Source: an uncultured Methanosarcinales archaeon (GTDB taxonomy: Archaea > Nanobdellota > Nanobdellia > Woesearchaeales > CAZZGN01). From it: DNA of 35,112 nt. Position numbers and translations under genes: made by a program. Under the pieces are notes generated by a model. The model ran no database searches. It was not told where the DNA came from and worked only from the letters and a program-made list of their open reading frames with translations. Shown here piece by piece: positions 1,025-17,747 of this stretch; within the stretch, counting starts at the first letter, position 1; each line of letters opens with the position of its first letter. The stretch covers positions 1-35,112 of the forward strand of contig CAZZGN010000002.1 in NCBI GenBank assembly GCA_964654165.1. The letters run 5' to 3'.

Positions 1025-1051
1025 AAAAAAAGATATTGGAGATGAATAATA

Positions 1052-2623: not shown

Positions 2624-2704
2624 AGTATTTATTTATCAGCAAGCAATGGAGAAATGGGGGCCTAAATTACAGGCCACTGTTTTCATTGAGAAAAATGGTG
2701 GAAT

Positions 2705-3118: not shown

Positions 3119-3128
3119 GGTAAATAAA

Positions 3129-3356
3129 TTGAATGAAATAAAGAATAAAATTAAAAAATTACAAAAGATTATATCAGAACTTGAAGTGATGATATTAGAT
3201 ATGGCTGGATTTAATGTAATCAAGGAACCATTTTTTTCAGTTGTTGGAACATGGAATTGTGATAAATCTCCTTGTGGTTTATGTTGTTACCATCATTATG
3301 TTGATCCAGTTCATGATGAGTGTGTTTTTTGTGGAAATCCAGAAGAGAGAAAATAA
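3129..3356 (+). CDS. small Cys-rich zinc-binding protein
   Basis: 75 aa, TTG start with GAGGT 9 nt upstream. Cys/His cluster CDKSPCGLCCYHH...HDECVFCG. Confidence 0.45.
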   Translation: MNEIKNKIKKLQKIISELEVMILDMAGFNVIKEPFFSVVGTWNCDKSPCGLCCYHHYVDPVHDECVFCGNPEERK

Positions 3357-3369
3357 TATTGTAAGAAAA

Positions 3370-3388
3370 TCGCAAATGTTATATAGGA
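3370..3388 (+). promoter_or_regulatory. variant copy of the recurrent promoter-like motif (TCGCAAATGTTATATAGGA)
   Basis: It shares TCGCAAATGTTATA with the 25455 copy. It lies upstream of the 3425 ORF and 31 nt upstream of an alternative ATG at 3408. Confidence 0.45.
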
Positions 3389-3424
3389 GAAACATCATTA
3401 ATAGAAAATGGGTGTATTTGAACA

Positions 3425-3667
3425 ATGTCAATTGATGAAGATGTCTCAACTTTCTGTTGTGGCGATGGATTTGTATGTGAAGAAGATCTTAAATGGGACT
3501 CCAGGAAAGAATATATTGAAAAATTTCAGCACACCTATAATCCAGCACATTTATACTGCCGCTTAAAAGAATGCGGTCTTGATGATGAGAATGTTAAAGC
3601 ACTTTGTAAGGTTTATGATTATGAAGTTTACCAGGTGATTATTGCTAATTTTAGAGAAAGGGTATGA
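3425..3667 (+). CDS. Cys-rich hypothetical protein
   Basis: 80-aa ORF with protein-like composition (FCCGDGFVCEED...CRLKECG...). No SD. The start is ambiguous with the overlapping 3408 ORF. Confidence 0.45.
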   Translation: MSIDEDVSTFCCGDGFVCEEDLKWDSRKEYIEKFQHTYNPAHLYCRLKECGLDDENVKALCKVYDYEVYQVIIANFRERV

Positions 3668-3751
3668 TCAAGTTTGTTTGGATATTTGTTGAGTTTGCCC
3701 TCAATTTATTCTAAATAAGGTTTGGTCATACCCCTCTTTGCTTATTTTTTT
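3660..3751 (+). terminator. long-stem structure plus T7 tract (transcription terminator candidate)
   Basis: An 11-bp stem pairs GGGTATGATCA (3660-3670) with TGGTCATACCC (3723-3733, one G-U). It encloses an inner hairpin TTGAG (3689-3693)/CTCAA (3700-3704). T7 follows at 3745-3751. Confidence 0.5.
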
Positions 3752-3758
3752 AGAAACA

Positions 3759-3766
3759 TTTATATA
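3759..3766 (+). promoter_or_regulatory. TATA-box-like element TTTATATA for the RHH gene
   Basis: The TTTATATA centre lies about 30 nt upstream of ATG 3793 and no SD is present. This spacing suggests a leaderless or near-leaderless mRNA. Confidence 0.5.
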
Positions 3767-3767
3767 G

Positions 3768-3794
3768 TTGTTATATTGGTTATATTTGTTATAT
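3768..3794 (+). repeat. three tandem 9-bp repeats (TNGTTATAT), candidate operator
   Basis: GTTATAT occurs at 3770-3776, 3779-3785 and 3788-3794, with an exact 9-bp period. The repeats lie between the TATA element and the RHH gene, and the last overlaps its ATG. Confidence 0.55.
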
Positions 3795-3987
3795 GGGCAG
3801 ACAAAACGAATATACAACTGTAAGAATCAAAACAAAAGATAGGGATAGGATTGCTTCTAAAGGAAAAAAGTCAGAAAGTTTTGATGAAATAATAGAGCGA
3901 ATACTTGATTATAATGATAAATGCATCAAACAAAAAACAAGGGAAGAAAGTATTTCAAAAGATGGCGATGGTGTTGGATCAACTTAA
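3793..3987 (+). CDS. ribbon-helix-helix (CopG/Arc-like) transcriptional regulator
   Basis: 64 aa. An N-terminal beta-strand (TTVRIK) is followed by two helices (KDRDRIASKG..., SFDEIIERILDY), the typical RHH layout. Confidence 0.6.
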   Translation: MGRQNEYTTVRIKTKDRDRIASKGKKSESFDEIIERILDYNDKCIKQKTREESISKDGDGVGST

Positions 3988-4097
3988 GTGCGAAATGTAA
4001 AAATCCTTTTGTAGCAAAAAGCAAAAGGTCATTGAGGGTTTGTCCGGCGTGTGATAAGTTATTAAAGTCTATCGGTTTAACGATATGGAGGTACAAA

Positions 4098-4658
4098 ATG
4101 GAAGGAAAAAAAGAAGAAAACAAACTTTATGAAGAGAAATTTGAGTGGCTTAATTCAAAAGAGTGTAAGGTTACTCATGAAGTGAAGGAGCCAATAAAAA
4201 ATAAGCATGGAAAGACTGTTGGTTTTAATACTAATGAAACGTCTTTTGTTGGCAGTTATGAAGAGATGGAAGAAGCTTTGCATAATCGTGAGTTTAGTAG
4301 GGATAAAGTTCTTAAGCAGCACCAACTTGAGGAAGCCAGATTGGAGAAGTTAGGTAAGAAGCCAATGAAAACACCTGAGATGGTAAGGCTTGAAAAGAAT
4401 TTGGTGGCTCTTGGAACTATTAAGAATCTTTCTCAGGCTGAAGATAAATTGAAGCATTGGAAAGTACAGTTGGATCAGGAGAATTCTTTTTTGGAAGCAA
4501 GGAAGAAAACTTTAGCTGCATGTCCTGCAGATGGAGAAGAACCTAAAGAAGAAGAACATCCAAAAAATCCGGATGGATCTAAAGGTGGAAATAGGCCAAC
4601 AACCGATGAGGAAAAGGCAGAGGCAGAAGCTAACAATGAACTTAATACAGGCAATTAA
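4098..4658 (+). CDS. hypothetical coiled-coil protein
   Basis: The ORF track begins at 3921 and overlaps the RHH gene. I prefer ATG 4098 with GGAGG 6 nt upstream. The protein is charged and coiled-coil-like with an acidic C-terminus. Confidence 0.5.
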   Translation: MEGKKEENKLYEEKFEWLNSKECKVTHEVKEPIKNKHGKTVGFNTNETSFVGSYEEMEEALHNREFSRDKVLKQHQLEEARLEKLGKKPMKTPEMVRLEKNLVALGTIKNLSQAEDKLKHWKVQLDQENSFLEARKKTLAACPADGEEPKEEEHPKNPDGSKGGNRPTTDEEKAEAEANNELNTGN

Positions 4659-4689
4659 GTCTTTTTTTGTTAAAGTCCAGGATATTATA

Positions 4690-5088
4690 ATGCAAGATAT
4701 GCTTTCTTATCCTGGTTTTTTAATTAAAGAACGTCTTGATGATATTGCGATAAAAGGAAGTTATGTTGAGATCTTGGATCAGAGTTATCTTATTCCAGAT
4801 CTGGATACACTTAAAGCAATTGTTAAGACAATGCCTATCAGGTTACAGAAGTACACTAAAGAAACTCATGATTGTGATGATTTTGCCAGGGAGTTCTGGG
4901 CTTTAGCAACAAAAATGTTTCCAGGAGTAAGTATTGGTTATGGTCATTTTGTGACTCCTGCAGGTAAGCATGCGGCGAATATTGCGTTTTATCATTTTGA
5001 TGGGATGTTACGTTTCACGCATATTGAACCGCAAAGTGGAAAGATTACTGAGTTCAGTGATTGGAAAGCTTACATGATGATTATATAA
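4690..5088 (+). CDS. hypothetical protein, possible papain/transglutaminase-fold cysteine peptidase
   Basis: I prefer ATG 4690 over the track start 4531, which overlaps the upstream gene. The candidate Cys-His-acid arrangement is HDCDDFAREFW ... GKHAANIAFY ... HIEPQSG. The fold call is weak. Confidence 0.4.
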   Translation: MQDMLSYPGFLIKERLDDIAIKGSYVEILDQSYLIPDLDTLKAIVKTMPIRLQKYTKETHDCDDFAREFWALATKMFPGVSIGYGHFVTPAGKHAANIAFYHFDGMLRFTHIEPQSGKITEFSDWKAYMMII

Positions 5089-5091
5089 AAA

Positions 5092-5238
5092 ATGGTAGAT
5101 ATAAAATCAATAAATAGGTGGGCTAAGTGGCTTATTGACAGGATTGAGTGTGTGACTTCAATACAACAGATGGAGATCACACCAACAAAAACACACTTAA
5201 TATTTGTGATAGAAGATGGAAAAAGAAAAAAAGATTGA
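5092..5238 (+). CDS. small hypothetical protein (48 aa)
   Basis: Hand-translated MVDIKSINRWAKWLIDRIECVTSIQQMEITPTKTHLIFVIEDGKRKKD. It fills an otherwise empty gap and overlaps the next gene by 23 nt. Confidence 0.3.
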   Translation: MVDIKSINRWAKWLIDRIECVTSIQQMEITPTKTHLIFVIEDGKRKKD

Positions 5239-5821
5239 AATAAAAGAAGTAAGTTTGGATAAGTTACAAGAGGATTCAACAAATCCAAATCGTATGACAA
5301 CAGAAAAGTTTGAATCATTAAAAAAAGGAATACAAAAATATGGGTTCTTAGTTCCAGTTATTACAAATAAAGATTACTTGATTGCAGATGGTCATCATAG
5401 GTTTAGGGCAGCAAGAGATCTTGGATATGAAAAGATTCCAGTTGTTGCTTTGGATGTTTCAAATGTTGATAGAATAATGCTTAGGCAAGTAATGAACAAG
5501 CTTCGAGGAGAGCATAATTTAATGAAAGATATTGATGATTTCGAAAAAATAATGAGTGACAAAGGAGACTTGAAAGAGTTTGCAGATCTTATGGGACAAC
5601 AACAAGATTTCTTTAGGGATGTGATCAAACTTAAAGATGAAGAAATGGAGCATTACATTGTTGTAAGGGATTATAATAAAGAGATCAATAGTCCGCAACA
5701 AGTTAAGCAGCTTAAACTTAAACTTACAGAAGATCAGAAAATTACAATAAAACAGAAGTTTCAAACACAAGAAAACCTTTTAGGGATAACAGATTACTTT
5801 ATAGTTTTGGAGGAAGAATGA
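5216..5821 (+). CDS. ParB-like nuclease-domain protein
   Basis: 201 aa. NPNRMTTEKFESLKKGIQKYGFLVPVI...IADGHHRFRAARDLGYEKIPVV carries the DGHHR-type ParB/Srx motif. The stop overlaps the methyltransferase start (ATGA). Confidence 0.7.
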   Translation: MEKEKKIEIKEVSLDKLQEDSTNPNRMTTEKFESLKKGIQKYGFLVPVITNKDYLIADGHHRFRAARDLGYEKIPVVALDVSNVDRIMLRQVMNKLRGEHNLMKDIDDFEKIMSDKGDLKEFADLMGQQQDFFRDVIKLKDEEMEHYIVVRDYNKEINSPQQVKQLKLKLTEDQKITIKQKFQTQENLLGITDYFIVLEEE

Positions 5822-6729
5822 AATTTGTAGATCTTTTTAGTGGGGCAGGAGGATTAAGTCTTGGTTTTAAAAAAGAAGGATTTAAAAGCCAGGGATTTGT
5901 AGAATTTTGGCAGCCAGCAATTGAAACAATGCTTAACAATGATCCTGAAGAAAAACTTATTCTTAAAGATATCACCGAAGTAACTAAAAAACATTTCACC
6001 TCAAACACTGATGTGGTGGTCGGAGGGCCACCATGTCAAGGTTTTAGTATGGCTGGGAAAAGAGAAGTTGGGGATAACAGAAATAGTTTGTTTGAATATT
6101 ATTTTAAGGTTGTTGATTATACGCAACCAAAGTTTTGTCTTATGGAAAATGTGCGAGGGATCCTTTCAATGAAAGATGTTGATGGAAAACTAATCATAAA
6201 CAAAATAATTTCTGCATTTAAAGATAAGGGTTATAGGACAGATATTAAATTGTTGAATAGTTTTAATTATTGTGTTCCTCAGAAAAGGCAAAGAATTATT
6301 ATTATAGCAAACAAAGAAGGAATTAAGTTTGATTTTCCTGAACCAAGATCAAAAATGTTTCTAAAAGAAGTTTTAACACTTCCTTATGAAGAACTGCCAG
6401 AGATACAGCATATTTATACTAAGAAAAAAATGCTTATGAAGAAAGGATTTTATATGAAACCAGGACAGAAGATTAGTAGTTTTGGAAGTGCAGGAATTAA
6501 GTTAAGATGGAGTCATGCACCAACGATTACTAAGACTGGGAGGTATATTCATCCAGGGTTTAATAGGTTGATAAGTGTTCGTGAAGCTGCAAGGATCCAG
6601 ACGTTTCCGGATGATTATATGTTTTCTGGAAATATTGATCAGAAGTATGGTCAGATTGGGAATGCTGTTCCTGTTAATATGGCGAGAGCACTTGCAGGAC
6701 AAATAAAAAAGAATATTGGAGATGATTAA
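5818..6729 (+). CDS. DNA (cytosine-5)-methyltransferase
   Basis: All the hallmark motifs appear in order: DLFSGAGGLSLGF (I), GGPPCQGFS (IV), ENVRG (VI), QKRQR (VIII), REAARIQTFPD (IX) and GNAVPV (X). Confidence 0.92.
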   Translation: MKFVDLFSGAGGLSLGFKKEGFKSQGFVEFWQPAIETMLNNDPEEKLILKDITEVTKKHFTSNTDVVVGGPPCQGFSMAGKREVGDNRNSLFEYYFKVVDYTQPKFCLMENVRGILSMKDVDGKLIINKIISAFKDKGYRTDIKLLNSFNYCVPQKRQRIIIIANKEGIKFDFPEPRSKMFLKEVLTLPYEELPEIQHIYTKKKMLMKKGFYMKPGQKISSFGSAGIKLRWSHAPTITKTGRYIHPGFNRLISVREAARIQTFPDDYMFSGNIDQKYGQIGNAVPVNMARALAGQIKKNIGDD

Positions 6730-6731
6730 AA

Positions 6732-6902
6732 ATGATTGATCATAGTGAAAAAATAGATGTTGCAGAAGCGATGGAGAAGTATGGGGGGAGTTTTGTTAAG
6801 AAGCTTTCTTCTCTTGTATATTGTGCTGATCCAGTAAATCTTGCAAAGATTAAGAATGCTTGGCCTGAGTATTGGGATCAGTATTTACAATTGAGTAAAT
6901 AA
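6732..6902 (+). CDS. small conserved phage-type protein (56 aa)
   Basis: Hand-translated MIDHSEKIDVAEAMEKYGGSFVKKLSSLVYCADPVNLAKIKNAWPEYWDQYLQLSK. A GGAGATGAT RBS lies 10 nt upstream. The GGxFV...AD..N...WPEYW pattern recurs in small phage proteins. Confidence 0.5.
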   Translation: MIDHSEKIDVAEAMEKYGGSFVKKLSSLVYCADPVNLAKIKNAWPEYWDQYLQLSK

Positions 6903-6921
6903 AACATTGGAGATGGTGTAA

Positions 6922-7323
6922 ATGAAGATAATTGAAAAAATTAAGAGATTTTTTACAAGGCAGACTATTGCAGATGTAGAAATTAAGATTAAGAAAAGAC
7001 CGGATGATTGTGGGGATTGTGATGAAAAAGATACTTGCAAGCTTTACAGTGGTGAAGTTGATTATGATATTTATCCTGTTGGGATGTCTGTTCCTATTTC
7101 TAAAACTGGAAGAGTTCCTAAGGGATGGGTTGTCATGCATGGTCAGAGATATAGGAATTTAAGAAGCAGCTATAATAATAATATCTTACCAAATGATCCA
7201 AACAGGATGATGCGAGTATGGGATAAAGAAGAGGAGGATACTTTCAAATTGACTAAGAAGGGTAAGAAAGCAGCGAATCAATCCAAAAAAAGGAAAAATA
7301 ATAAAGAAAGTGGTAGAAAATGA
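6922..7323 (+). CDS. hypothetical protein with basic C-terminal tail
   Basis: 133 aa with an ATTGGAGATGG RBS 9 nt upstream. It contains a CGDCDEKDTC cluster and a Lys-rich tail. Confidence 0.5.
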   Translation: MKIIEKIKRFFTRQTIADVEIKIKKRPDDCGDCDEKDTCKLYSGEVDYDIYPVGMSVPISKTGRVPKGWVVMHGQRYRNLRSSYNNNILPNDPNRMMRVWDKEEEDTFKLTKKGKKAANQSKKRKNNKESGRK

Positions 7324-7571
7324 ATAAGGATATAAAAAAGTTAAAAAGGAACGGTTGGAATCTTGAGAGGGAGACTACCAGGAGTTTTTATGTTTATAGG
7401 AATAAGAGTTTTAGGAATAATTTTAGTTGGGCGAGTTTTGTTTTGCTTAGTTTGTTTTTCAACATTTTTGGCTTGGTTGGTTACATTATTTGTTATTTTC
7501 GTAAACCTCATGTTGAAAACAGAATTGTTCCTAAGAGTTTTCCTGAAGAGGACTGGGACCTAAACGTATGA
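7320..7571 (+). CDS. small membrane protein
   Basis: 83 aa with ATGA coupling to the upstream gene. The hydrophobic segment WASFVLLSLFFNIFGLVGYIICYF is a candidate transmembrane span. Confidence 0.5.
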   Translation: MNKDIKKLKRNGWNLERETTRSFYVYRNKSFRNNFSWASFVLLSLFFNIFGLVGYIICYFRKPHVENRIVPKSFPEEDWDLNV

Positions 7572-7714
7572 AAATGATAGAATGCGAGAATTGTGGGGCA
7601 AGATTTGAGGATTTCAGTAATGATTTTGAATGTACTGATTCAGGAGAAGAGATTTGTCCTTCGTGCCAAAAATGTACATTAATACATAATTTTCCAGAGG
7701 GAGTTTCACCATGA
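7568..7714 (+). CDS. mini zinc-ribbon protein (48 aa)
   Basis: Hand-translated MKMIECENCGARFEDFSNDFECTDSGEEICPSCQKCTLIHNFPEGVSP. It has CxxC ... CxxC pairs and is coupled to both neighbours by overlaps. Confidence 0.5.
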   Translation: MKMIECENCGARFEDFSNDFECTDSGEEICPSCQKCTLIHNFPEGVSP

Positions 7715-8175
7715 GAGAGATAAAATTCAGAGCATGGGATGGGAAACAAATGATTGAAGAACTTGATTGTCCAGTGTTAAAACCAATTGGTTTGCTTAAT
7801 GAGAATCATAAATTAGTTTTTGGTCATGATGGGCATGATGATTATGTTTATGAAGGAGATGTTGAAGATTTTAAATTGATGCAGTTCACTGGCCTAAAAG
7901 ATAAAGAAGGAAAAGAAATATATGAAGGAGACAAAATAATATTTCCTAACATAAAAAAAAATTCATCAGCGATAATAAGTTTTGGAAAACATACAGATAT
8001 AGCTGAAGCAGGATGCACCACACATTCAAATTATGGTTTTTATTTACAATTTGATGATGGCTCAACTGTAGGACTATTAAATGAAGAATCCTTTTTGGAT
8101 TGGAAGAATATTGAAGTTATTGGAAACATTTATCAAGATCCAGAACTAATCAAAAAAGACTTACCAAAAGATTAA
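7711..8175 (+). CDS. yopX: YopX-family protein
   Basis: The N-terminal MREIKFRAWDGKQM and C-terminal IEVIGNIYQDPELI are characteristic of the YopX family. Confidence 0.7.
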   Translation: MREIKFRAWDGKQMIEELDCPVLKPIGLLNENHKLVFGHDGHDDYVYEGDVEDFKLMQFTGLKDKEGKEIYEGDKIIFPNIKKNSSAIISFGKHTDIAEAGCTTHSNYGFYLQFDDGSTVGLLNEESFLDWKNIEVIGNIYQDPELIKKDLPKD

Positions 8176-8177
8176 CG

Positions 8178-8678
8178 ATGCCTAAAGAATCAAAATTTAA
8201 GGAAAAAGAATGGGAGTATCCAAAGAATAATACTTTCTGGCCTACTCAGCAAAGGAGGAGGAAGCTTAAGGATTTGTCTGAGGAGATTGGTTTGTATAAT
8301 GTTAATTTGACTCAGTTGGCTATGCAGATGGGTATTTCTCGGACCATGATTTATAATGATATTAAGGCTTTGTATAAGCAGGGTTTGGATAAGGATGTTT
8401 TGGCTCAGGCTAAGGTTAATATTGATAGTGCGCATAAGAAGGTTATGAAGGAGATGCAGAAGCTTGTTTTTGATAGTAAGGAGAAGGTTTCTGTTTCTAA
8501 CCGGATTCGTGCTGCTAATACTCTTCTTTCTGCTAATGAGAAGCATACTGATTTTTTGGAAAAGTTTGGTGAGAAGGCTAAGGTTGCTGAGCGTGTTGAG
8601 AGTAAGACTGTTGTGATGTGGGATGATGGTGAAGAAGAGGAAGATGGTGAGGAAAAAGAGGGAGATGATCAACAATGA
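8178..8678 (+). CDS. HTH protein, candidate small terminase subunit
   Basis: 166 aa. It has an HTH-like segment (NLTQLAMQMGISRTMIYNDIKAL), a helical middle region and an acidic tail. It lies in the block upstream of the large terminase, so the call rests on position. Confidence 0.4.
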   Translation: MPKESKFKEKEWEYPKNNTFWPTQQRRRKLKDLSEEIGLYNVNLTQLAMQMGISRTMIYNDIKALYKQGLDKDVLAQAKVNIDSAHKKVMKEMQKLVFDSKEKVSVSNRIRAANTLLSANEKHTDFLEKFGEKAKVAERVESKTVVMWDDGEEEEDGEEKEGDDQQ

Positions 8679-8932
8679 TTAAGAAATTTAGAAAGAAACC
8701 TGTTGTTATTGAAGCAATAAAATATGATGGAACTATGGAATCTTTTAGTGAGATTCAAGAATGGTGTGATACAATTGAAGTAACTGCTTATAGAGATAAA
8801 AAGTTAAGAATACCTACACTTGAAGGTTTTCATGATGCGAGTATTGGTGATTGGATAATCAAAGGAGTTAAAGAAGAGTTTTATCCTTGTAAGCCAGATA
8901 TATTTGATATGACTTATGAAGAAGTAAAATGA
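8675..8932 (+). CDS. conserved small phage protein (KKPV...GDWI...YPCKPDIF type)
   Basis: 85 aa. The motif pattern KKPVVIEAIKY ... GDWIIKG ... FYPCKPDIFDMTYE is common in uncharacterised phage proteins. ATGA couples it to the upstream gene. Confidence 0.55.
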   Translation: MIKKFRKKPVVIEAIKYDGTMESFSEIQEWCDTIEVTAYRDKKLRIPTLEGFHDASIGDWIIKGVKEEFYPCKPDIFDMTYEEVK

Positions 8933-9081
8933 AACAAAAAAGATTTGAAAAAGTATTTGGAACAGATAAGTGGAGATGCTTAAAGTGTGGAAAATTAGTA
9001 AAAGAGATGGGTTGGTCAGGTCATTTAAGAAAACATAAAGAAAAGGTTCATCAAGTAAATAAGCATATTGACACTTACTAA
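8929..9081 (+). CDS. C2H2-like mini zinc-finger protein (50 aa)
   Basis: Hand-translated MKQKRFEKVFGTDKWRCLKCGKLVKEMGWSGHLRKHKEKVHQVNKHIDTY. The pattern is CxxC ... HxxxH. ATGA overlaps the upstream gene. Confidence 0.5.
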   Translation: MKQKRFEKVFGTDKWRCLKCGKLVKEMGWSGHLRKHKEKVHQVNKHIDTY

Positions 9082-9088
9082 AATAAAT

Positions 9089-9184
9089 ATGAAATGTAAA
9101 TATTGTTGGGAAGAAATGAGAGAAGGGGGTTTTAAAAAATGTAATAGAAGCCCTGTTGGTTTTTGTATTCCAGAAGGTTTTTAA
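9089..9184 (+). CDS. mini Cys-rich peptide (31 aa)
   Basis: Hand-translated MKCKYCWEEMREGGFKKCNRSPVGFCIPEGF. It has CxxC plus two further Cys and is very short. Confidence 0.3.
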   Translation: MKCKYCWEEMREGGFKKCNRSPVGFCIPEGF

Positions 9185-9310
9185 ATGAGGGCTAACGATA
9201 TTGATCATGTAGTGATTGATGTCTGGAGTAAGTCCGGAGAACACAAAAGAATAGATACAAAGAATTATAGTGAGGCTTGCAGGTGGTTAAGGCTTGCAAG
9301 TTTTGAATGA
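9185..9310 (+). CDS. small hypothetical protein (41 aa)
   Basis: Hand-translated MRANDIDHVVIDVWSKSGEHKRIDTKNYSEACRWLRLASFE. It starts immediately after the previous stop. Confidence 0.3.
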   Translation: MRANDIDHVVIDVWSKSGEHKRIDTKNYSEACRWLRLASFE

Positions 9311-9382
9311 AATATTATGTTCACCAAGCTGAAAATGGGTGTTGAAACTGATTGGTTTTTCATAGGGCCAATCGCCTCTTTT

Positions 9383-9452
9383 CCCCTGGCATTATACACA
9401 TTCGGGTGTTACGAAGGATCAGCGTCTTAACGCTTTTTTGCCAGGGTTTTTT
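9383..9452 (+). terminator. nested stem-loops each followed by T6 (terminator candidate for the upstream operon)
   Basis: The outer stem pairs CCCTGGCA (9384-9391) with TGCCAGGG (9439-9446) and is followed by TTTTTT. The inner hairpin AGCGT-CTTA-ACGCT (9421-9434) is also followed by TTTTTT. The large outer loop is atypical of simple intrinsic terminators. Confidence 0.4.
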
Positions 9453-9525
9453 ATAATCTTGAAAAAACAGATATCACATGGGGTTGATAACCATGAGTGT
9501 CGGGTGAGAATCCCTACGTCATATT

Positions 9526-9562
9526 CATGGGGATGGAAGTATGGATCATGGAAATCCATGGA
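9526..9562 (+). repeat. cluster of four direct ATGGA repeats within a CATGG/CCATG-rich stretch
   Basis: ATGGA occurs at 9533, 9541, 9548 and 9558. CATGG occurs at 9477, 9526, 9547, 9557 and 9715, and CCATG at 9491, 9556 and 9748. That is 8 pentamer hits in about 280 nt, where I estimate well under 1 by chance. Confidence 0.5.
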
Positions 9563-9812
9563 TTATATGTAAACCGGAAGACATAACTTGAGTATGTCTC
9601 AAAGCAATTTTGTGAAAATCAAAACAGTAACTTGCTGCTGCAGGGAACATAAGTGTAATCTGATGAAGATCTTTGCAGGTTCGAAATTGGCATTAAAAGC
9701 GTAGAGCATTGTGGCATGGCACAACAGTTAGGGGTTGCAAACCCTCACCATGTAATCGATATCGTAAAAGCCATCGAAAATCCTGCCCATCCCATTATAA
9801 TTAAAGAAGAGA

Positions 9813-9980
9813 ATGAAAAAATACAGATGCTTTAGATGTAAGAAAATATTTGTCACAAATAGGATATATTCAGCTAATTCCAATAGAAGAATTTGTGGTG
9901 ATTGTATAAAACCAAGAGATAATAAAAATCATAAATATATTCATCATTATAAGAAAGTAATGAATTTGATCAGTGACTAA
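9813..9980 (+). CDS. mini zinc-ribbon protein (55 aa)
   Basis: Hand-translated MKKYRCFRCKKIFVTNRIYSANSNRRICGDCIKPRDNKNHKYIHHYKKVMNLISD. It has CxxC ... CxxC pairs and lies immediately upstream of the large terminase. Confidence 0.45.
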   Translation: MKKYRCFRCKKIFVTNRIYSANSNRRICGDCIKPRDNKNHKYIHHYKKVMNLISD

Positions 9981-9986
9981 ACAAAG

Positions 9987-11264
9987 ATGGCGATACTCAA
10001 AATACCTTACAAACCACACAAAGGACAAAAGAAATTCCATCAAAGTAAAGCTAAATTCAGAGGATTATTAACAGGAGTAGCATACGGAAAAACCGCAGCA
10101 GGAGCAAACGAAATACTCAAGATGGCCGTGAAGTACCCTAAAAGTAAATTCTTAGTAATGGCCCCAAACAGCAAGATCCTTAATCATGCAACACTTCCTG
10201 AAATATATAAATGGGGAAGAAAACTAATTGTTTCTGAAACAAAATCTAAAAACACTATTCACATTCTTGGAGGAGGAACAATTATTTATCTTACTGCAGA
10301 TAACATGCGGCACGTTGACAGACTTAGAGGAATGACAATTGGAGGTTTCTGGCTTGATGAAGCAAGCTTATTTCTCAGAATGGTTTGGGCAGTTATTCTT
10401 GCAAGACTAAGATGTAATCATGGACCTCTTAAGGGAGTTATCACAACTACTCCTAAAGGATTTAATTGGCTGTACTGGTATTTTGTTAAAGGAACTAATC
10501 CAGTTAATAAAAAGAAATTACGTAATGCGGATAGTTATTGGTGGATAGGTGGGACAACGCATGATAACCCTTATACTCCTGAAGAATTTAAGCAGACTTT
10601 GATGGATGATTATACAGGAATATTTAAGAGACAAGAGATTTATGGTGAGTTCACAGGATTTGAAGGCCAGGTATATCCGCAGTTCAAACATAATACTCAT
10701 ATCTTGGAAAAGTATCCTGAACCTGGAAGGATTAGGGATGTTATTGCAGGAGTTGATTGGGGGTTCACTAATCCGATGGCAGGTTTGATTATAGGGTTTG
10801 ATAATGATGGGCGTTCTTATGTGCTTGAAGAGTTTTATAGGACTGGCCAGAAAGTAAGTAATTTGATTGATTGGTTGCATGAACAAAAAGAAAAGTATCC
10901 ACTTCTTAGAAGAGTTTATGCAGATCCTGCAGAGCCGCAGTTCATTATGGAAGTTAATGAAGCAAGGTATGAGTGTATTGCTGCAGATAATAGTGTCCTC
11001 CCTGGGATCAATAAAGTTTATGATTATGTTGAGATTGCAGGTGATGGACTTCCAAGGTTGTTTGTTATGAAACATTGCCAGGGAACTATTGATGAGTTCA
11101 GTACTTATCATTTTCCGGAAAGTAAGGATGGTGTTCCTAAGCAAGATAAGCCTTTGAAAGTTGATGATCACTGCATGGATGCGTTAAGATATGCTCTTAA
11201 ATCTCATGCTTATGGCAAAAAGTCTCACACAATTCTTAGTGATAAGGATGGTTCAATATTATAG
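9987..11264 (+). CDS. terL: terminase large subunit
   Basis: 425 aa. It has a Walker A-like GVAYGKTAAG and Walker B-like FWLDEAS. The RNase H-like nuclease motifs are GVDWGFTNPMAG, VYADPAEPQFI and DDHCMDALRYAL. Confidence 0.92.
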   Translation: MAILKIPYKPHKGQKKFHQSKAKFRGLLTGVAYGKTAAGANEILKMAVKYPKSKFLVMAPNSKILNHATLPEIYKWGRKLIVSETKSKNTIHILGGGTIIYLTADNMRHVDRLRGMTIGGFWLDEASLFLRMVWAVILARLRCNHGPLKGVITTTPKGFNWLYWYFVKGTNPVNKKKLRNADSYWWIGGTTHDNPYTPEEFKQTLMDDYTGIFKRQEIYGEFTGFEGQVYPQFKHNTHILEKYPEPGRIRDVIAGVDWGFTNPMAGLIIGFDNDGRSYVLEEFYRTGQKVSNLIDWLHEQKEKYPLLRRVYADPAEPQFIMEVNEARYECIAADNSVLPGINKVYDYVEIAGDGLPRLFVMKHCQGTIDEFSTYHFPESKDGVPKQDKPLKVDDHCMDALRYALKSHAYGKKSHTILSDKDGSIL

Positions 11265-11270
11265 AAATAT

Positions 11271-11289
11271 CCGATAATGTTATAAATGA
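11271..11289 (+). promoter_or_regulatory. recurrent promoter-like motif CCGATAATGTTATAAATGA
   Basis: One of six copies of the motif. TTATAAAT starts 39 nt upstream of the portal ATG, and no SD is present. Confidence 0.55.
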
Positions 11290-11317
11290 CAATCATTATT
11301 AAATTAGATTAGACACG

Positions 11318-13654
11318 ATGGGGATCTTCAAAACTTTTAAAACAAGGATGGGTAAGCTTAATCCTTATGCTAATATAGCGACGTTATCTAAACAATTACA
11401 ACTTAACCAGGTGGCTATGGATGGTTTACTTCGTCCTGGAAGCGGAGGAAACAGAGGTTATGAAGGTAGTACTTTTGTTGTTCCAAGATATCCTCTTCCT
11501 TTAGAAACATTGTATGATGTTGCTTATAATTCTGATACTTTGTCTACAATTCATTTTGCGCTTAAGCTTGAATGTTTCAGGAATGGTTTTGAACTTTTGG
11601 AAGCTGATTCAACTGATAGTGATACCATGACTTCTGAAGATGATGTTAAGACAAATAATGAGTATATGAATGGTGTTCTTGAAAGGCTTGATAATGTTAA
11701 TGAGAACGGACAGAGTAATCTTGATGTTCATGAAGAGCTTGAAGATGACTGGAATATTATGGATGATATTTTTAAGTTTTACTTATTTGATTACAAATTT
11801 AATTCTGCAGGAGAAATTAGTGATTATGATCTAAGAGAAATGATGCGGATGGATCCTAAATATATGGGTCTTGTCATGAATTACCAGGACAGGCCAGGCT
11901 ATGATGATAAAAGTAATATCCTTACTGTTTGTCCAGATCATAGGAACGCGCTTTTAACAAATACTGAACTATGCCCTCAGTGTAACAAAATGACTTATAA
12001 AGCTTATTACAGGCATTTGTACCGTGGAGATGCTCTGTACTATTTCAAGCATGAAGTTTATCATAAGAGCAGGTACAGGAAAAGTAAAAGATTAGGTTTC
12101 AGTCCGATAATTACTGTTTGGCAAAAGAATGCAACTCTTTGGAAACAGGATAAATATATTCTTGAAATGTATACTAAGGAAAGGCCACCAAAAAGTGCTT
12201 TATTCTTTAAGACTTCTAATGTTGAAAGTTTAAAAGCTGCATGGGAAGAAGCTAAAGTTAATGCTAACGCAAACCCTCATCACCCTGTTGTCATGGCAAT
12301 ACAGAGTAGCGGTATTAAAGGTGAGCAAGGTAAGTTTGTTGAGTTTGTAGATTTCATGAGAAGCCTTGATGATTTGCAATTCACTGAACAAAGAGAAGAG
12401 TATAGGAGAACAATTGGCGCAGTCTATGGAGTTCTCCCAATTTGGCAAGCAGACACGTCAACCAGTGGCGGCCTAAATAATGAAGGTATGCAGATCACAG
12501 TTACTAATCGTAGGATCCAGGCTAACCAGTCAGGGCATGATGATATTTTTAAGAATGATCTTAAAGCAATGAAAGTTGAAGGATTAGTTTTAAAACTTAA
12601 ACCTTCTGAAGAACAGGATGAAATGGCTAAGCTTGACAGACAACAGAAAAGTCTTGAGATTGGTGAGAAGGCTGCAGAGCTTGGTCTTGAAGTTGTTTAT
12701 GTTGAAGATACTGATGAGGTTAAGATCCATCCAGGAACTATTGAAGCACGTTCTCCAATATCTGGCTTCCCGGGTATTCCACAAAATTCTAACTCTTTTG
12801 ATTCACCCCCAACAAACGAAGGAGATGTTGATAATTCTGGAACACCCGAGGAGCCTTCTTTTAATAAAGCTGATAAACAAAAAAAAAAGCCAAATTTAGG
12901 AAATAGGGCTAATTTCACTACCTTTTCTAAGACTCTTGAAGAAAATGTTGATATATTCTTAAAGAAATTTAAGCGTAAACCTTCAAGTTTTGAGATGTCT
13001 AAAATGATTAAAGAGATTGACAAAAATCTTTATGACAGTCTGAAGAGTTCTGTTGGTTTAAGTTTTGATAAAGTTTATAAGGATCAGATGGATTTTGTTG
13101 GTAAAGATCTTGGAGTGAATATTGTTTTTGGTCAGGTTGATGTTAATGCTTTGGAAGCTTTGAAGAACCAGGATGTTTTAAGTAAGGCTTTTAAGGATTT
13201 GTCTAATGATGTTGTTTCTAAATTGAATCTTATTTTGAATGAGAGTTATGCTAATCCTGCAGAGTTGACTGTTGCGAAGATTACTGAAAAGATTAAGGAT
13301 GTTGCTGATGTTACAGATTATCGTGCAGAGAATATTGCAAGGACTGAACTTGGTAAAGTTGCAAGTGCTGCTCGAAGGAATAGTTATAAGAAAGAAGATT
13401 CTGAGAATGAGTTTAATTATTTATGGATTGGACCAAATGATCATAGAACTACTTCGACAAGTAAAAGAATTAAGAAGCGTGTTGGTAAGGGAGTTAAGTG
13501 GCAGAAATTAATTAATATTATTGAGGAGGAGTCTATTAAAGATTTTCCTAAGTGGGTAGTTGATAAGAATTTTCCAGTTAGTCATTATCAGTCGAGACAT
13601 ATATTCCTTAGAACTCAAGGTTCTTTAAAAGATAATATATTTTTTAAAACTTAA
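11318..13654 (+). CDS. portal protein with C-terminal MuF/SPP1 gp7-like head-morphogenesis domain
   Basis: 778 aa, directly downstream of terL. The C-terminal ENIARTELGKVASAARRNSY...NYLWIGPNDHRTTSTSKRI resembles Mu F-type domains. There is an internal CPDH...CPQC knuckle. Confidence 0.72.
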   Translation: MGIFKTFKTRMGKLNPYANIATLSKQLQLNQVAMDGLLRPGSGGNRGYEGSTFVVPRYPLPLETLYDVAYNSDTLSTIHFALKLECFRNGFELLEADSTDSDTMTSEDDVKTNNEYMNGVLERLDNVNENGQSNLDVHEELEDDWNIMDDIFKFYLFDYKFNSAGEISDYDLREMMRMDPKYMGLVMNYQDRPGYDDKSNILTVCPDHRNALLTNTELCPQCNKMTYKAYYRHLYRGDALYYFKHEVYHKSRYRKSKRLGFSPIITVWQKNATLWKQDKYILEMYTKERPPKSALFFKTSNVESLKAAWEEAKVNANANPHHPVVMAIQSSGIKGEQGKFVEFVDFMRSLDDLQFTEQREEYRRTIGAVYGVLPIWQADTSTSGGLNNEGMQITVTNRRIQANQSGHDDIFKNDLKAMKVEGLVLKLKPSEEQDEMAKLDRQQKSLEIGEKAAELGLEVVYVEDTDEVKIHPGTIEARSPISGFPGIPQNSNSFDSPPTNEGDVDNSGTPEEPSFNKADKQKKKPNLGNRANFTTFSKTLEENVDIFLKKFKRKPSSFEMSKMIKEIDKNLYDSLKSSVGLSFDKVYKDQMDFVGKDLGVNIVFGQVDVNALEALKNQDVLSKAFKDLSNDVVSKLNLILNESYANPAELTVAKITEKIKDVADVTDYRAENIARTELGKVASAARRNSYKKEDSENEFNYLWIGPNDHRTTSTSKRIKKRVGKGVKWQKLINIIEEESIKDFPKWVVDKNFPVSHYQSRHIFLRTQGSLKDNIFFKT

Positions 13655-13692
13655 GTATGGATTATTGTTTTCCATTTTAGATCACCTATTTA

Positions 13693-13737
13693 GGACTTAG
13701 TGGGTTTATTCTTTTTCCTGCTAAGTTCTTTTTTTTT
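13693..13737 (+). terminator. hairpin plus T9 terminator
   Basis: An 8-bp stem pairs GGACTTAG (13693-13700) with CTAAGTTC (13721-13728, one G-U). T9 follows at 13729-13737. Confidence 0.6.
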
Positions 13738-13753
13738 CGATAATGTTATAAAC
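13738..13753 (+). promoter_or_regulatory. recurrent promoter-like motif CGATAATGTTATAAAC
   Basis: It abuts the terminator T-tract. TTATAAA starts 31 nt upstream of ATG 13777, and no SD is present. Confidence 0.55.
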
Positions 13754-13776
13754 GAATTCTATTATAATAAAATATT

Positions 13777-14190
13777 ATGGCAACAGCAGAACAACAATTA
13801 TTAAGCGCAGTTGATAAATTCATGGATGATATTGCAGATAGAATTTTTGAACTTAGCCAATTAACTCTTATTGATGAAAACAAAACTGATAGTTCAACAA
13901 TGTTTAAAACCGCAAATGTTGTAAGAAAACCTTTTGAGAAAACAATTGTTTATCCTGCACCTTATTCTGATGTTATCGAGTTTGGAAGAAATCCAGGAAG
14001 TCCAGTTTATAGTAAATGGTTACATAAATGGGTTGAAAGAAAGCTTGGAATTACTGATCCTAAAAGGATTAAGAGTGTGAGTTTTGCAATTGCAAAGAGT
14101 ATACAAGAAAGAGGATTGCAAGCAACTAATTTTTTGACTAATGCTGCTTTTAAAGCAAGGAGTGAAATGGAGAGTGGAATAAATGAATGA
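13777..14190 (+). CDS. hypothetical head/neck-associated protein (weak HK97 gp10-like resemblance)
   Basis: 137 aa. YPAPYSDVIEFGRNPGSP resembles the ..YA.YVEFGT.. signature of gp10-family proteins. It sits between the portal and protease genes. Confidence 0.45.
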   Translation: MATAEQQLLSAVDKFMDDIADRIFELSQLTLIDENKTDSSTMFKTANVVRKPFEKTIVYPAPYSDVIEFGRNPGSPVYSKWLHKWVERKLGITDPKRIKSVSFAIAKSIQERGLQATNFLTNAAFKARSEMESGINE

Positions 14191-15538
14191 TGTAATGTTT
14201 GTTAAAAAATCTGAAGGTAATGCAGCATATTCTTTTAATGAGGTTTTGGATGCTTTCCAGAGTATGGATGATATGGAGATGCTTCGTGAAGTTGTTGAGA
14301 ATGCTGAAGATAGAGTTTATGTTAGTTGGGCGAGTGTTGATGTTCGTGATCATGATGGTGAGAAAGTTCAGATAACAGATATAATTAATGATCAAGATAC
14401 TTTGCTTAAAAGGAATGGTCCTATTTCTGATACTCATACTAATGCTATTGTTGGCCAGACGCATGCATATAAAGTTCTTGAACATCCTGAAGCTAAGAAG
14501 ATGGGTGTTTTGCATTTGAACAGGATCTTTGATGATAATAAACAGGATGATCTTGTATGGAGCGAAACCCAATCTGGAAAAAGAAAAGGATCCAGTGTGG
14601 GAGGTTTTAATCTAAAGTTTAAATTTGAGAAGGATCCTGATACTGGTCTTATGACAAGGATCAGAGATGATTTTCACCAGTATGAGACTGCTAATGTTAA
14701 GGATCCTGCAAATCCTTTGGCACTTAATGAGTTTGTAAGTTTGGTTGCTAAGAGCAAAAATCCGATTAAGAAAATGCTTTCTAAATCAGAAATGGAGACT
14801 GTCGACGACATAATGGGCTATGTGGCAGGTAAGATAGCTAAATTAAAGGAAACTTTTGATAAAGGTTATGAAAAGCCAAAAAAAGAAGTTGGCAAAGAAG
14901 AAACAAAAAAGGCAAATTCGGACAAAAACGCCGATAATGTTATAAATAAGAAAACTAATGATTTAGATAATGTTGAAAAATCTAAATTTATGAGGGATAA
15001 AAAAATGGCTGAAGAAGTTAAAAAAACAAATGATGAACAGATTGCTTCTATTACTAAATCTGTGGGTGACTTAACAGATGTTGTTAAATCACTTGCTGAG
15101 AAAGTACAAAAGCAAGATGCAATAGTTGCAAAACAAGAAGATGAAAAACCTAAGGAAGAACCTAAAGAGGAACCTAAGGTAGAAAAACCTGAAGAGAAAA
15201 AGGTTGAAGAGACAAAGAAAGAAGAAGCAAAATCAGATATTCCTGGAGAAGCAGATGCTAAACAACCTGAACCTCCTTTAGCAGAAAACAGTAATCAAGA
15301 ATCAGTTTTCAAGGAAATGGTTTCAAAACAGAATACGATTATTGAAGGATTACAAAAGGATATGGCATCAGTTAAGAAATCAGCTGAAACCAGACCAGGA
15401 TTCCAAGAGACAGCGAAAGTCACAAAAGCAAGAAAAGAAAATGAAACTCTTGCAGTAGATATCGCAAAAGGAACTGTTAAGAAATCCTTCAGACACTGTC
15501 ATGATGTAAGCCGAGATATGGGCTTACTAATCGAGTAG
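14183..15538 (+). CDS. prohead serine protease (HK97/S78-like) fused to a K/E-rich scaffold-like C-terminal domain
   Basis: The N-terminal ~200 aa carry VDVRDHDGEKV, ISDTHTNAIVGQ and KGSSVGGF, matching the prohead-protease pattern. The C-terminal ~250 aa are low-complexity and coiled-coil-like (EEKPKEEPKEEPKVEKPEEKK). Confidence 0.8.
   Translation: MNDVMFVKKSEGNAAYSFNEVLDAFQSMDDMEMLREVVENAEDRVYVSWASVDVRDHDGEKVQITDIINDQDTLLKRNGPISDTHTNAIVGQTHAYKVLEHPEAKKMGVLHLNRIFDDNKQDDLVWSETQSGKRKGSSVGGFNLKFKFEKDPDTGLMTRIRDDFHQYETANVKDPANPLALNEFVSLVAKSKNPIKKMLSKSEMETVDDIMGYVAGKIAKLKETFDKGYEKPKKEVGKEETKKANSDKNADNVINKKTNDLDNVEKSKFMRDKKMAEEVKKTNDEQIASITKSVGDLTDVVKSLAEKVQKQDAIVAKQEDEKPKEEPKEEPKVEKPEEKKVEETKKEEAKSDIPGEADAKQPEPPLAENSNQESVFKEMVSKQNTIIEGLQKDMASVKKSAETRPGFQETAKVTKARKENETLAVDIAKGTVKKSFRHCHDVSRDMGLLIE
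14930..14952 (+). promoter_or_regulatory. intragenic exact copy of the promoter-like motif (GCCGATAATGTTATAAATAAGAA)
   Basis: It is identical over 23 nt to the copy at 26447-26469. It lies inside the protease-scaffold ORF, upstream of in-frame ATGs at 14990 and 15005. Confidence 0.5.
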
Positions 15539-15552
15539 GAGGAGAGAAAAAA

Positions 15553-16680
15553 ATGGTAGACTTTAACAATATGGACAATCTTTTACAACATTATTATGGT
15601 GGGTTTGGTGTAAAAAAAGATGCACCAGTTCTTACTACAACAACAGGCGTTTATAACCCAGTGTTTGGAGCTTTCGCATTTAATCAGATAAATATGGAAG
15701 CAAATGCATTTGCGTTATTGCCTAAATATCCATGGCCGCATTCAGGATTTAGAGCTATCACAGCAGATCCTTCAAGTTCAGATTATGGAGCAGTAGCAGA
15801 AAACGGAAATATTCCTGCAACTATTAAGCCAACATTTGCAGAAATTACAGTGACCACAAAGCAAGTAGTTCATTCTTTTGATGTTTCATACATCCAAGAG
15901 GGTAAAGTGAATAAGTCAGCTGATGATGCAATTGGAGATATGGAATTCTTAAGAGGTTACTTTGCAACATTCCACGGAAAGGATATTAACCGTCAGATTT
16001 TGATTGATGGAGATACTCTTGCAACAAACAAATTTGAAAGTATTGATAGGGTAACCGCATCAAGTGCTTATGCAACAGCAGTTGGATGGACAGCAGGAGA
16101 TGAAGATATCTATGGAATCGACAGAAGTGGAGCAGCATGGGCAGATGCTTATGTAAACCATAATTCTGGAGTTGACAGATTCTTAACTGATGAGATCATC
16201 AGGACAAGTTTTTCAAATCTTGAAACAAATGGTGCTGCAACTAATTTAATGTTGACAGGAAATGACACTAAATGGAAGATCTTTGGTATTTACGAAAACC
16301 AAGTAAGATATCAAGGAGTTCTCCAAAAGAATGTTGGTTTTACTATTGGTATTAACGGTGTTGAAACTGATGGTGGAATGGGAGCAGGTGTTCGAGTAGC
16401 AACTGTTTACGGTACACCTTTGTTCAGCACTCAGAGTGCAGCGCAAGATACAATTTCAAGAATTTATATGCTTGACACAACTGAAGAAGCAGGAAGTGGA
16501 CGGCCAAGACTTGGAATCTCACTTATGTATCCGACACTTTACTTTGAAAGCGGAATGAGTGCAGCAAATCCTAATCCGTTTGCGATTGGAAGATTTGGAA
16601 CTGAAGGAGTTTATTATACAGCAGGAGAATTGGTGTGTACTTTTTTAGCAGCACAAGGATCTATAAGAGATCTTAAGTAG
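15553..16680 (+). CDS. major capsid protein (HK97-fold inferred)
   Basis: 375 aa with a strong GGAGGA RBS, immediately after the prohead protease. It is Gly/Ala-rich and codon usage suggests high expression. The call rests on position and size. Confidence 0.72.
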   Translation: MVDFNNMDNLLQHYYGGFGVKKDAPVLTTTTGVYNPVFGAFAFNQINMEANAFALLPKYPWPHSGFRAITADPSSSDYGAVAENGNIPATIKPTFAEITVTTKQVVHSFDVSYIQEGKVNKSADDAIGDMEFLRGYFATFHGKDINRQILIDGDTLATNKFESIDRVTASSAYATAVGWTAGDEDIYGIDRSGAAWADAYVNHNSGVDRFLTDEIIRTSFSNLETNGAATNLMLTGNDTKWKIFGIYENQVRYQGVLQKNVGFTIGINGVETDGGMGAGVRVATVYGTPLFSTQSAAQDTISRIYMLDTTEEAGSGRPRLGISLMYPTLYFESGMSAANPNPFAIGRFGTEGVYYTAGELVCTFLAAQGSIRDLK

Positions 16681-16692
16681 GAGGAGATCAGA

Positions 16693-17613: not shown

Positions 17614-17621
17614 ACAGGTGG

Positions 17622-17747
17622 ATGAAGATGAAAACTAAAAAATCTATTCATGAAAGAGATGCTGAACGTATGGCAGAGTTAGCAAAAACAGAGCATGCTA
17701 ATAAAGGCAAGTCTGGGAAAAAGAAAGCTAAGAAATCTGAAAAATAA
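17622..17747 (+). CDS. small basic protein (41 aa)
   Basis: Hand-translated MKMKTKKSIHERDAERMAELAKTEHANKGKSGKKKAKKSEK. It ends at a T-rich tract. Confidence 0.3.
   Translation: MKMKTKKSIHERDAERMAELAKTEHANKGKSGKKKAKKSEK

Follow-up and report, generated by a model that had tools for sequence, protein, structure and literature searches.

What kind of element occupies positions 9311–9812 of the window, the whole stretch of 35,112 nt analysed here, between the genes of a small-terminase-like protein (TerS) and the large terminase (TerL)? A first-pass annotation had read this region, hereafter the gap, as either a large structured RNA or a protein-binding array such as a pac/cos site or an origin. 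The explanation that we favour, tentatively and at somewhat less than even confidence, is that the gap would hold the boundary of a transcription unit and, behind it, a spacer specific to this lineage, in which an array of CATGG/ATGGR motifs would form a protein-binding cluster controlling the TerL unit or, less likely, serving packaging.

The TerS-like protein, an HTH protein with an HTH_11 match, is encoded on the + strand at 8178–8678, and homologs in relatives are found at or just upstream of TerL. TerL itself (9987–11264, + strand) is of the Terminase_6N/Terminase_3 (PBSX-family) type. Further upstream, the virus encodes a C5-methylase (5818–6729). The gap had been described as lying immediately upstream of the large terminase, but a 55-aa zinc-ribbon ORF with a CxxC...CxxC pattern (9813–9980, + strand) is located between the gap and the TerL start at 9987. 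This ORF belongs to no family, was missed by both gene callers, and has a weak pairwise match to a 69-aa ORF of one relative, L002 (E 0.001). The borders of the gap are soft, as the flanking mini-ORFs 9068–9184 and 9185–9310 have no family support and the Logan gene caller predicts no gene in 9185–9986.

Judged from its proteins and promoters, the virus is probably an archaeal tailed virus. Among 50,697 phage records, the capsid protein (15553–16680) has matches in archaeal tailed viruses only, namely Haloarcula HCTV-1, HVTV-1 and HCTV-5 plus one Methanofastidiosa virus, and the best TerL matches are archaeal viruses as well. A conserved + strand promoter motif, yCGmwAATGTTATAAATrA, is present in six copies scoring 25–31 bits, compared with 11 for the next best site. 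Its TATA-like part ends 23–24 nt before two start codons that lack an SD motif, a spacing that fits archaeal leaderless transcription. We take the host to be probably archaeal on the basis of the capsid and TerL matches together with this leaderless-type promoter motif. A search for the host among genomes returned only a contig of a TA06 MAG, likely a binned virus.

Composition and coding content of the gap

The G+C enrichment claimed for the gap was confirmed, with 40.0% in 9311–9812 versus 33.9% for the whole 35,112-nt stretch, which is the 98th percentile among 502-nt windows. The gap is the most G+C-rich and the second longest of 15 intergenic stretches of at least 40 nt; the G+C fraction of the others is 0.12–0.38, and that of coding DNA 0.343. 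As had been stated, neither strand has an ORF that reaches 60 aa, and both are tiled by ORFs of 29–51 aa.

The possibility that a conserved small-protein gene had been missed was checked, and no homolog was found in Pfam, PHROGs, 5.8 billion proteins or 1.84 billion representatives. The six-frame translations of the gap had no match to Pfam and a best E value of only 0.18 against PHROGs, and their concatenate gave 0 matches at E ≤ 1 among the 5.8 billion proteins. The longest suggestive stretch, 58 open codons at 9659–9832, is HTH-like and resembles the HTH of TerS by tblastn, and a phmmer search with it against the 1.84 billion representatives returned only the stretch itself and a spurious repetitive T9SS protein. 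A concatenated search with four flanking mini-proteins gave no match, although word indexing may have suffered from the X spacers. SD motifs precede none of the gap ORFs. Codon usage is uninformative, its score being near zero in the neighbouring mini-ORFs as well as in all gap frames.

We consider it highly improbable that some of the ORFs of 36–44 codons are real and belong with the neighbouring zinc-ribbon mini-genes. The candidates would be 9594–9704 (Cys-rich), 9716–9835 and 9317–9430. Mini-genes are abundant in this neighbourhood, 9716–9835 is predicted by the JGI gene caller, and a TATA-like box ends 23 nt before the ATG at 9594, as at the genes behind the promoter motif. The searches above speak against such genes in every frame, as do the missing SD motifs and the codon-usage score; in addition, the minus strand is equally tiled by comparable ORFs, and a second gene caller predicts none.

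Mobile and integrative elements were also considered. A MITE or other small mobile element was rejected, the flanking inverted repeats being 71–81% complementary, by estimate the level of chance. No further copies of the gap were found in the 35-kb stretch, where internal paralogy is absent, nor in pattern scans of IMG/VR. For an attP with a tRNA fragment, there was no integrase domain among the ORFs scanned and no tRNA-like match.

The TerS–TerL interval in related viruses

Homologs of the gap were found neither by blastn against phages and plasmids nor by comparing it with all retrieved loci by blastn and tblastx. IMG/VR was scanned four times with exact or degenerate patterns, which gave a single match, in the unrelated L153. 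All other contigs reaching the gap are 100% identical to the 35-kb stretch, and exact-protein look-ups for strain variants returned only identical copies or fragments stopping at ~9315. The TerL relatives are at most 64% identical, and the closest of them cannot show the interval because their contigs end 81–420 nt upstream of TerL.

Where the interval is covered, its arrangement varies. In L002, L059, L062, L063 and L152, TerL has a TerS homolog adjoining it or nearly so; in L180 this homolog is located 94 nt upstream of TerL, and in L150 a zinc-ribbon protein abuts TerL. In L179 the two terminase genes are ~1 kb apart, with tiny zinc-ribbon ORFs, some of them uncalled, and an HNH endonuclease in between. 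None of these intervals resembles the gap and none has a CATGG cluster. Because the arrangements of the relatives differ, we regard the terS–terL interval as a variable slot and a hot spot of turnover, in which the gap is an orphan. Its raised G+C content and the absence of homologs would then stem from acquisition and turnover of DNA in this slot, and not from a conserved RNA or protein product.

The same slot gives room for another explanation, namely that the spacer, apart from the terminator described below, is a decayed remnant without present function. The eroding material would be accessory mini-genes, or else a gene of a mobile element or homing endonuclease formerly present in the TerS–TerL slot, and maybe came from a relative of higher G+C content. 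We hold this to be unlikely, although a number of observations agree with it. The G+C fraction of 0.40 and the positive GC skew of the gap are like those of the + strand coding DNA of the virus (TerS 0.387, TerL 0.374) and of relatives with 40–54% G+C. The slot of L179 holds tiny genes, and inteins have invaded the TerL of relatives. Furthermore, one frame (codon starts divisible by 3) is interrupted by just one stop between 9366 and 9704, and 9683–9781 is weakly HTH-like, resembling TerS. Residual homology is missing, however, in six-frame searches of Pfam, PHROGs and the 5.8 billion proteins and by phmmer against the 1.84 billion representatives, and codon usage scores near zero in every frame. 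A decayed copy of TerS in the HTH-like stretch was rejected, as a TerS-family HMM, built with one non-TerS sequence (from L150) included, scored it no better than expected by chance (E 1.3, fifth among 917 six-frame ORFs). Decay would also leave unexplained a cluster of eight CATGG copies that is unique in the genome.

Folding and a putative terminator at the 5′ end

The description of the gap as stem-loop-dense is appropriate for its 5′ quarter (9345–9475, z −3.0 to −4.3) and does not apply to the whole, the folding energy of which is that of dinucleotide shuffles (z −0.54 on the + strand, −0.51 on the − strand). Only the window 9350–9449 stands out in a scan of the gap by 100-nt windows (z −4.3 on the + strand, −3.6 on the − strand); windows within 9475–9812 have z values from −1.6 to +1.3. 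Folded alone, the hairpin 9349–9374, the compound hairpin 9384–9446 and the whole of 9345–9475 each have z near −3, and the hairpins proposed further downstream fold no better than shuffles. The structure reaches upstream into the two unsupported mini-ORFs (z −3.9 for 9125–9224, −2.2 for 9120–9455). Since 28 of 701 100-nt windows reach z ≤ −2.5 in a genome-wide scan of the + strand, the structured 5′ part is ordinary for this genome; in that scan the gap's window has z −2.9, versus −7.8 for 3651–3750.

The first element of this structured part is an 11-bp hairpin (9349–9374, + strand) followed by CCTCTTTTCC. It is terminator-like, with −10.8 kcal/mol and z −3.05, and 1 of 200 shuffles folded as well. 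Downstream of it is the element that had been likened to a three-way junction, and such an element is present: a compound hairpin on the + strand (9384–9446, −21.7 kcal/mol, z −3.16), in which an 8-bp G+C-rich outer stem (9384–9391/9439–9446) encloses inner hairpins, one of them at 9421–9434. What the earlier description of these 5′ hairpins had missed is that they make up a putative terminator with two T6 runs on the + strand, 9434–9439 after the inner hairpin and 9447–9452 after the outer stem, which we propose as the termination signal (9434–9452). Taking as a terminator a G+C-rich stem-loop located behind a gene and continued directly, on the transcribed strand, by at least five T, we found two such arrangements on the + strand, 9421–9434 plus T6 and 9384–9446 plus T6, and no T run after the stem on the minus strand. 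The second T6 run can also pair with an A6 run in a hairpin of A/U pairs only (9447–9468, + strand), which holds the TATA-like TTTATAAT (9450–9457), a possible promoter element.

T runs of this kind mark noncoding DNA throughout the genome. On the + strand, runs of six or more T occur at 4.36/kb in noncoding versus 0.56/kb in coding DNA, an 8-fold difference, whereas runs of six or more A are only 2.5-fold denser in noncoding DNA. Two siblings of the gap element were found: at 3652–3751 a 34-bp hairpin (3652–3740) is followed by T7, and at 13695–13737 a 12-bp hairpin is followed by T9, with the conserved promoter motif directly after. Including the compound hairpin of the gap, the + strand thus has at least three putative hairpin-plus-T-run terminators.

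We therefore describe the structured part as a putative hairpin-plus-T-run terminator, a description that is valid for either host domain. It shares with intrinsic and archaeal oligo-T terminators a G+C-rich stem directly followed by T6, twice and on the coding strand only, as well as a position behind the final ORF of its unit, with siblings at two other gene ends. It differs from them in being compound, with an inner 5-bp hairpin and its T6 nested in an 8-bp stem with its own T6, and in being preceded by another hairpin; the host domain here is inferred and the function putative. An ordinary terminator of a type repeatedly used in this genome would thus be the content of the structured part.

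In the boundary model, the upstream + strand unit, consisting of the methylase, YopX, TerS and mini-ORF genes, would end at 9384–9446 with the T6 runs of 9434–9452, where the anatomy is seen directly and the function is our interpretation; the design is the same as in the elements at 3652–3751 and 13695–13737. The remaining ~360 nt would carry the start signals of a unit formed by the 55-aa zinc-ribbon ORF and TerL. Since runs of five or more T are absent from 9453 until 11768, transcription begun in the spacer could continue through TerL. What speaks against a boundary of this kind is its length of 360 nt, as at the other sites in the genome a terminator is separated from the following gene by far less, 50–175 nt.

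A large structured RNA, in contrast, is not supported. Folding of the whole gap equals that of shuffles on both strands, and no Rfam family was recognised. The ~270-nt domain that had been suggested is located wholly inside the part with z near 0, and the long-range 9-bp helix thought to close it comes down, when read from the sequence, to a perfect match of only 7 bp (9530–9536 with 9787–9793), which arises because the same ATGGR motif is present in inverted orientation. Its 3′ partner is CCCATCCCAT (9786–9795), with two ATGGG motifs in reverse orientation. The covariance-model comparison with Rfam that had been recommended gave 0 matches in 9311–9812 at the gathering score or at E ≤ 10; the sole match at E ≤ 10 in 9100–10000 is a chance snoRNA-like one on the − strand at 9866–9950, outside the gap. 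A tRNA/tmRNA search found none in the gap, and a regular-expression search of both strands of 9250–9900 for archaeal C/D-box sRNAs (C box RUGAUGA and D box CUGA, 30–85 nt apart) found no pair.

A smaller RNA was considered as well. A transcript starting behind the terminator, at ~9480 or ~9594, could be a 5′ leader of ~220–335 nt for the zinc-ribbon/TerL unit, or a stand-alone RNA, with three hairpins on an identical CAUGG/CCAUG stem. The gap is enriched in G+C relative to all other noncoding DNA, there is no terminator with T≥5 before TerL, and three convergent CATGG...CCATG pairs could form identical 5-bp stems. We nevertheless rate such an RNA as very unlikely, given the z values of −1.6 to +1.3 within 9475–9812 and −0.5 for the whole gap, and the lack of an Rfam family at E ≤ 10, of C/D boxes and of any homolog. 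True structured RNAs in A+T-rich genomes have a larger G+C excess than the 40% versus 34% found here. The gap is thus similar to the G+C-rich islands that mark ncRNA genes in A+T-rich archaeal genomes in being the G+C-richest noncoding stretch, but differs from them in its small excess, in having no thermodynamic signal over most of its length and in matching no family. For now the main value of the present analysis is corrective: no ribozyme or riboswitch lies hidden in the G+C-rich gap.

The CATGG/ATGGR array and promoter candidates

The over-representation of CATGG/CCATG that had been noticed is real, with 8 copies where the frequency in the rest of the genome predicts 0.48 (Poisson 5e-8). 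Five are CATGG (9477, 9526, 9547, 9557, 9715) and three CCATG (9491, 9556, 9748), and their density is the genome maximum, 8 per 300 nt versus at most 2 elsewhere. The four ATGGA repeats were likewise found as reported, at 9533, 9541, 9548 and 9558, and ATGGR occurs 6 times in 40 nt (9523–9562), compared with no more than 4 in any other 40 nt of the genome. As the motif is undepleted in the rest of the genome, the cluster is a local enrichment.

Six CATGG/CCATG and six ATGGR make up the core of the array, 9477–9564. This core contains the inverted pair CATGG-N9-CCATG (9477–9495) and a 12-bp perfect palindrome, AATCCATGGATT (9553–9564). An outlying inverted pair, CATGG-N28-CCATG (9715–9752), surrounds GGGGTTGCAAACCC, a 13-nt near-repeat of 9480–9492, and folds no better than shuffles (z +0.6). 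The repeats have a core of just 5 nt in common, beyond which no consensus extends. They follow one another at uneven distances of 6, 8, 7 and 10 nt, and the CATGG...CCATG pairs enclose 9, 4 and 28 nt, unlike a classical dimer operator.

Of the suggestion of a protein-binding array, the general part stands, since the array is statistically real and a cluster of binding sites at the DNA level is plausible on that account; the specific parts fare less well, a family-conserved pac/cos site being weakened and an origin a poor fit. Under the boundary model, the sites, dense at 9477–9564 and with outliers at 9715–9752 and 9786–9795, would be bound by a sequence-specific DNA-binding protein that controls the zinc-ribbon/TerL unit. 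The 5-nt core and the irregular spacing that set the array apart from a classical dimer operator count against this model too.

The palindrome AATCCATGGATT adjoins a TATA-like box, TTATATGT (9563–9570, + strand), and so occupies the position expected of an operator. Together the two may be a concrete, if weak, candidate for a promoter-operator. The box precedes the 36-codon Cys-rich orphan ORF (9594–9704) at the distance given above, the same as that of the leaderless genes behind the conserved promoter motif of the virus. A second candidate, a promoter-like TCGAAA-16-TATAAT (10/12 match; 9774–9801, + strand), has its AT-rich box 11 nt before the ATG at 9813. However, the number of sigma-70-type promoter matches is not above that in shuffles, and TATA-like boxes such as those named here are common in A+T-rich DNA. 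The virus's own promoter motif is absent from the spacer, which also counts against the boundary model; the best score of its PWM in the gap is −2.1, compared with 25–31 bits for the six true copies. Operator arrays at archaeal BRE/TATA promoters are similar in that the palindrome and direct repeats of the gap are located just upstream of, or overlap, a TATA-like box, the distance of which to the ATG fits the leaderless genes of the virus. They are different in that the box of the gap is weak and unlike the virus's own promoter, and that its regulator is hypothetical.

An alternative to transcriptional control is that the array is a pac, or cos-binding, site, to which the HTH small terminase, with its gene 600 nt further upstream, would bind and position TerL for the first cut. 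The array is found between the terS-like and terL genes, and its short motifs are iterated in both orientations around a central stretch, in addition to being statistically real. Iterated short motifs are also known from SPP1 pacL/pacR, the R sites of lambda cosB and the hexamer arrays of P1 pac, of which the gap array is reminiscent. Likewise, TerL proteins of the Terminase_6N/Terminase_3 (PBSX-family) type are often tied to headful packaging. We nonetheless find a packaging site decidedly doubtful. The relatives in which terS and terL abut have neither the interval nor the CATGG cluster, which weakens a family-conserved pac/cos site and would make this pac lineage-specific. Known pac sites are usually located in or just before terS, whereas the array is 800–1300 nt after it. 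The contig neither starts nor ends in the gap and has no terminal overlap, and a 10-bp palindrome at its left end, holding the genome's only CTAG, hints at termini elsewhere, provided that the contig ends are physical. Compared with the SPP1, lambda and P1 arrays, the gap thus shares repeats in both orientations next to terminase genes and an HTH small terminase nearby, but its array follows terS, is missing in all relatives and has a 5-nt core with irregular spacing.

A bolder idea joins these possibilities. The CATGG/CCATG cluster could be a functional recognition array specific to this lineage, either as a new type of packaging-initiation site between terS and terL, or in the form of hairpins of a long leader, with identical CAUGG stems, that gate terminase expression past a strong terminator, a packaging checkpoint by antitermination or attenuation. 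We consider this improbable, and know of no described counterpart of either reading in archaeal viruses. If the array is functional, it would be the first handle on the control or initiation of DNA packaging in a non-halophilic archaeal tailed virus, a group for which, to our knowledge, essentially no cis-elements are known. Taken for what it contains, the gap offers a new, orphan example of elements whose kinds are already known, and its novelty is modest.

That the clustered short repeats and palindromes would form a replication origin is extremely improbable, and we disfavour it. The gap is G+C-rich and not A+T-rich, it has only the short ATGGR pentamers and no long iterons, and the cumulative GC skew is monotonic with no turn at the gap. 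It also belongs to the packaging module, and the replication genes are far away. In one relative an iteron region (L152, 1027–1547) adjoins the primase gene; the CTAGTTTG motif of this region is seen again in the present contig, at its left end and not in the gap.

A separate observation concerns the genome as a whole, in which CTAG is avoided to an extreme degree (1 copy compared with 38.7 expected). This avoidance and the six-copy promoter motif probably tell more of the biology of the virus than the gap does.

Probable identity of the virus and a repeated, probable promoter motif

The window is probably the near-complete genome, of ~35 kb, of an archaeal tailed virus that is rich in A+T and has not been cultured. 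The capsid protein (15553-16680) matched only archaeal tailed viruses among 50,697 phage records, namely Haloarcula HCTV-1, HVTV-1 and HCTV-5 and Methanofastidiosa vir519, and the top matches of the large terminase TerL (9987-11264) were also archaeal viruses.

An 18-20-nt motif, yCG(A/C)(T/A)AATGTTATAAAT(A/G)A, is found six times in the window (3369-3390, 11270-11291, 13736-13757, 14930-14951, 25454-25475 and 26447-26468), in all six cases on the + strand. Using a matrix (PWM) built from the motif, these copies scored 25-31 bits, and the next best site scored 11. Five of the six are located shortly 5' of genes, which are the portal gene and those at 13777, 25496, 26513 and 3425. Furthermore, two ATGs without a Shine-Dalgarno sequence lie 23-24 nt downstream from the end of the TATA-like part of the motif. 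The motif is a candidate for, and probably is, the main promoter of the virus, of the BRE/TATA type.

Matches to sigma-70-type promoters were counted in both parts of the window. They were rarer than in shuffled sequence within 1-18000 (46 vs 69.7 +/- 8.4) and inside the noise within 18001-35112 (68 vs 77.0 +/- 7.8). These counts fit, if weakly, either a host other than a bacterium or selection that removes spurious promoters.

Terminator-like hairpins and distribution of T runs

The top local structure on the + strand is an imperfect hairpin of ~34 bp at 3652-3751 (-36 kcal/mol), with a folding energy well below that of shuffled sequence (z -7.8 in a 100-nt scan and -4.5 over 126 nt). It is located at the end of gene 3425-3667, is directly followed by T7, and is a large terminator-like element. 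Beyond the portal gene come a hairpin of 12 bp and a T9 run, and a copy of the conserved promoter motif follows at once; 13695-13757 is a compact junction from terminator to promoter.

Runs of at least five T occur on average about 2.5 times per kb in the window, and none is present on the + strand over 2.3 kb (9453-11768). This stretch spans the start of the portal gene, TerL, the 55-aa zinc-ribbon ORF (9813-9980), and the remainder of the ORF-poor, G+C-enriched gap (9311-9812) that lies between the TerS-like gene (8178-8678) and TerL. Strong + strand hairpins at 9125-9224 (z -3.9) and 9225-9324 (z -2.95) overlap two mini-ORFs, 9068-9184 and 9185-9310. The two gene callers disagree on these mini-ORFs, no homologs of either were found, and their coding status is doubtful.

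The terminase locus in relatives

The TerS-TerL "gaps" of the relative L179, whose TerL is 57% identical to that of the window, contain uncalled zinc-ribbon mini-ORFs (L179 2949-4000), exemplified by one of 46 aa beginning MEICNGCNQLKECKP. An HNH endonuclease of 88 aa is encoded shortly 5' of TerL in the same locus. Intein/Hint domains (PF14890, PF13403, PF07591) are present in several TerL homologs (P0021, P0029, P0037, P0045 and P0063), which are 636-734 aa long. In this virus group, mobile elements often target the terminase locus. Contigs of several TerL relatives (L149, L151, L182 and L001) stop just 81-194 nt 5' of TerL; these ends could be assembly breaks in the variable interval, or physical genome ends.

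Repeats in a relative and the palindrome at the left end

In the relative L152, an ORF-free region of 521 nt (L152 1027-1547) follows the primase-helicase gene. Dense TAGTTTGATTAT / ATAATCAAACTA repeats surround a G+C-rich hairpin there, and the region looks like a putative iteron origin. The core of these repeats, CTAGTTTG, is found again at 3-10 in the window. The first bases of the contig (1-10) form a perfect 10-bp palindrome, AAACTAGTTT, which contains the only CTAG of the whole window (1 vs 38.7 expected, O/E 0.03), an extreme avoidance of this tetranucleotide. GGCC, in turn, is commoner than expected in the whole window, at an O/E of 1.96. One of the viral genes (5818-6729) codes for a C5 cytosine methylase.
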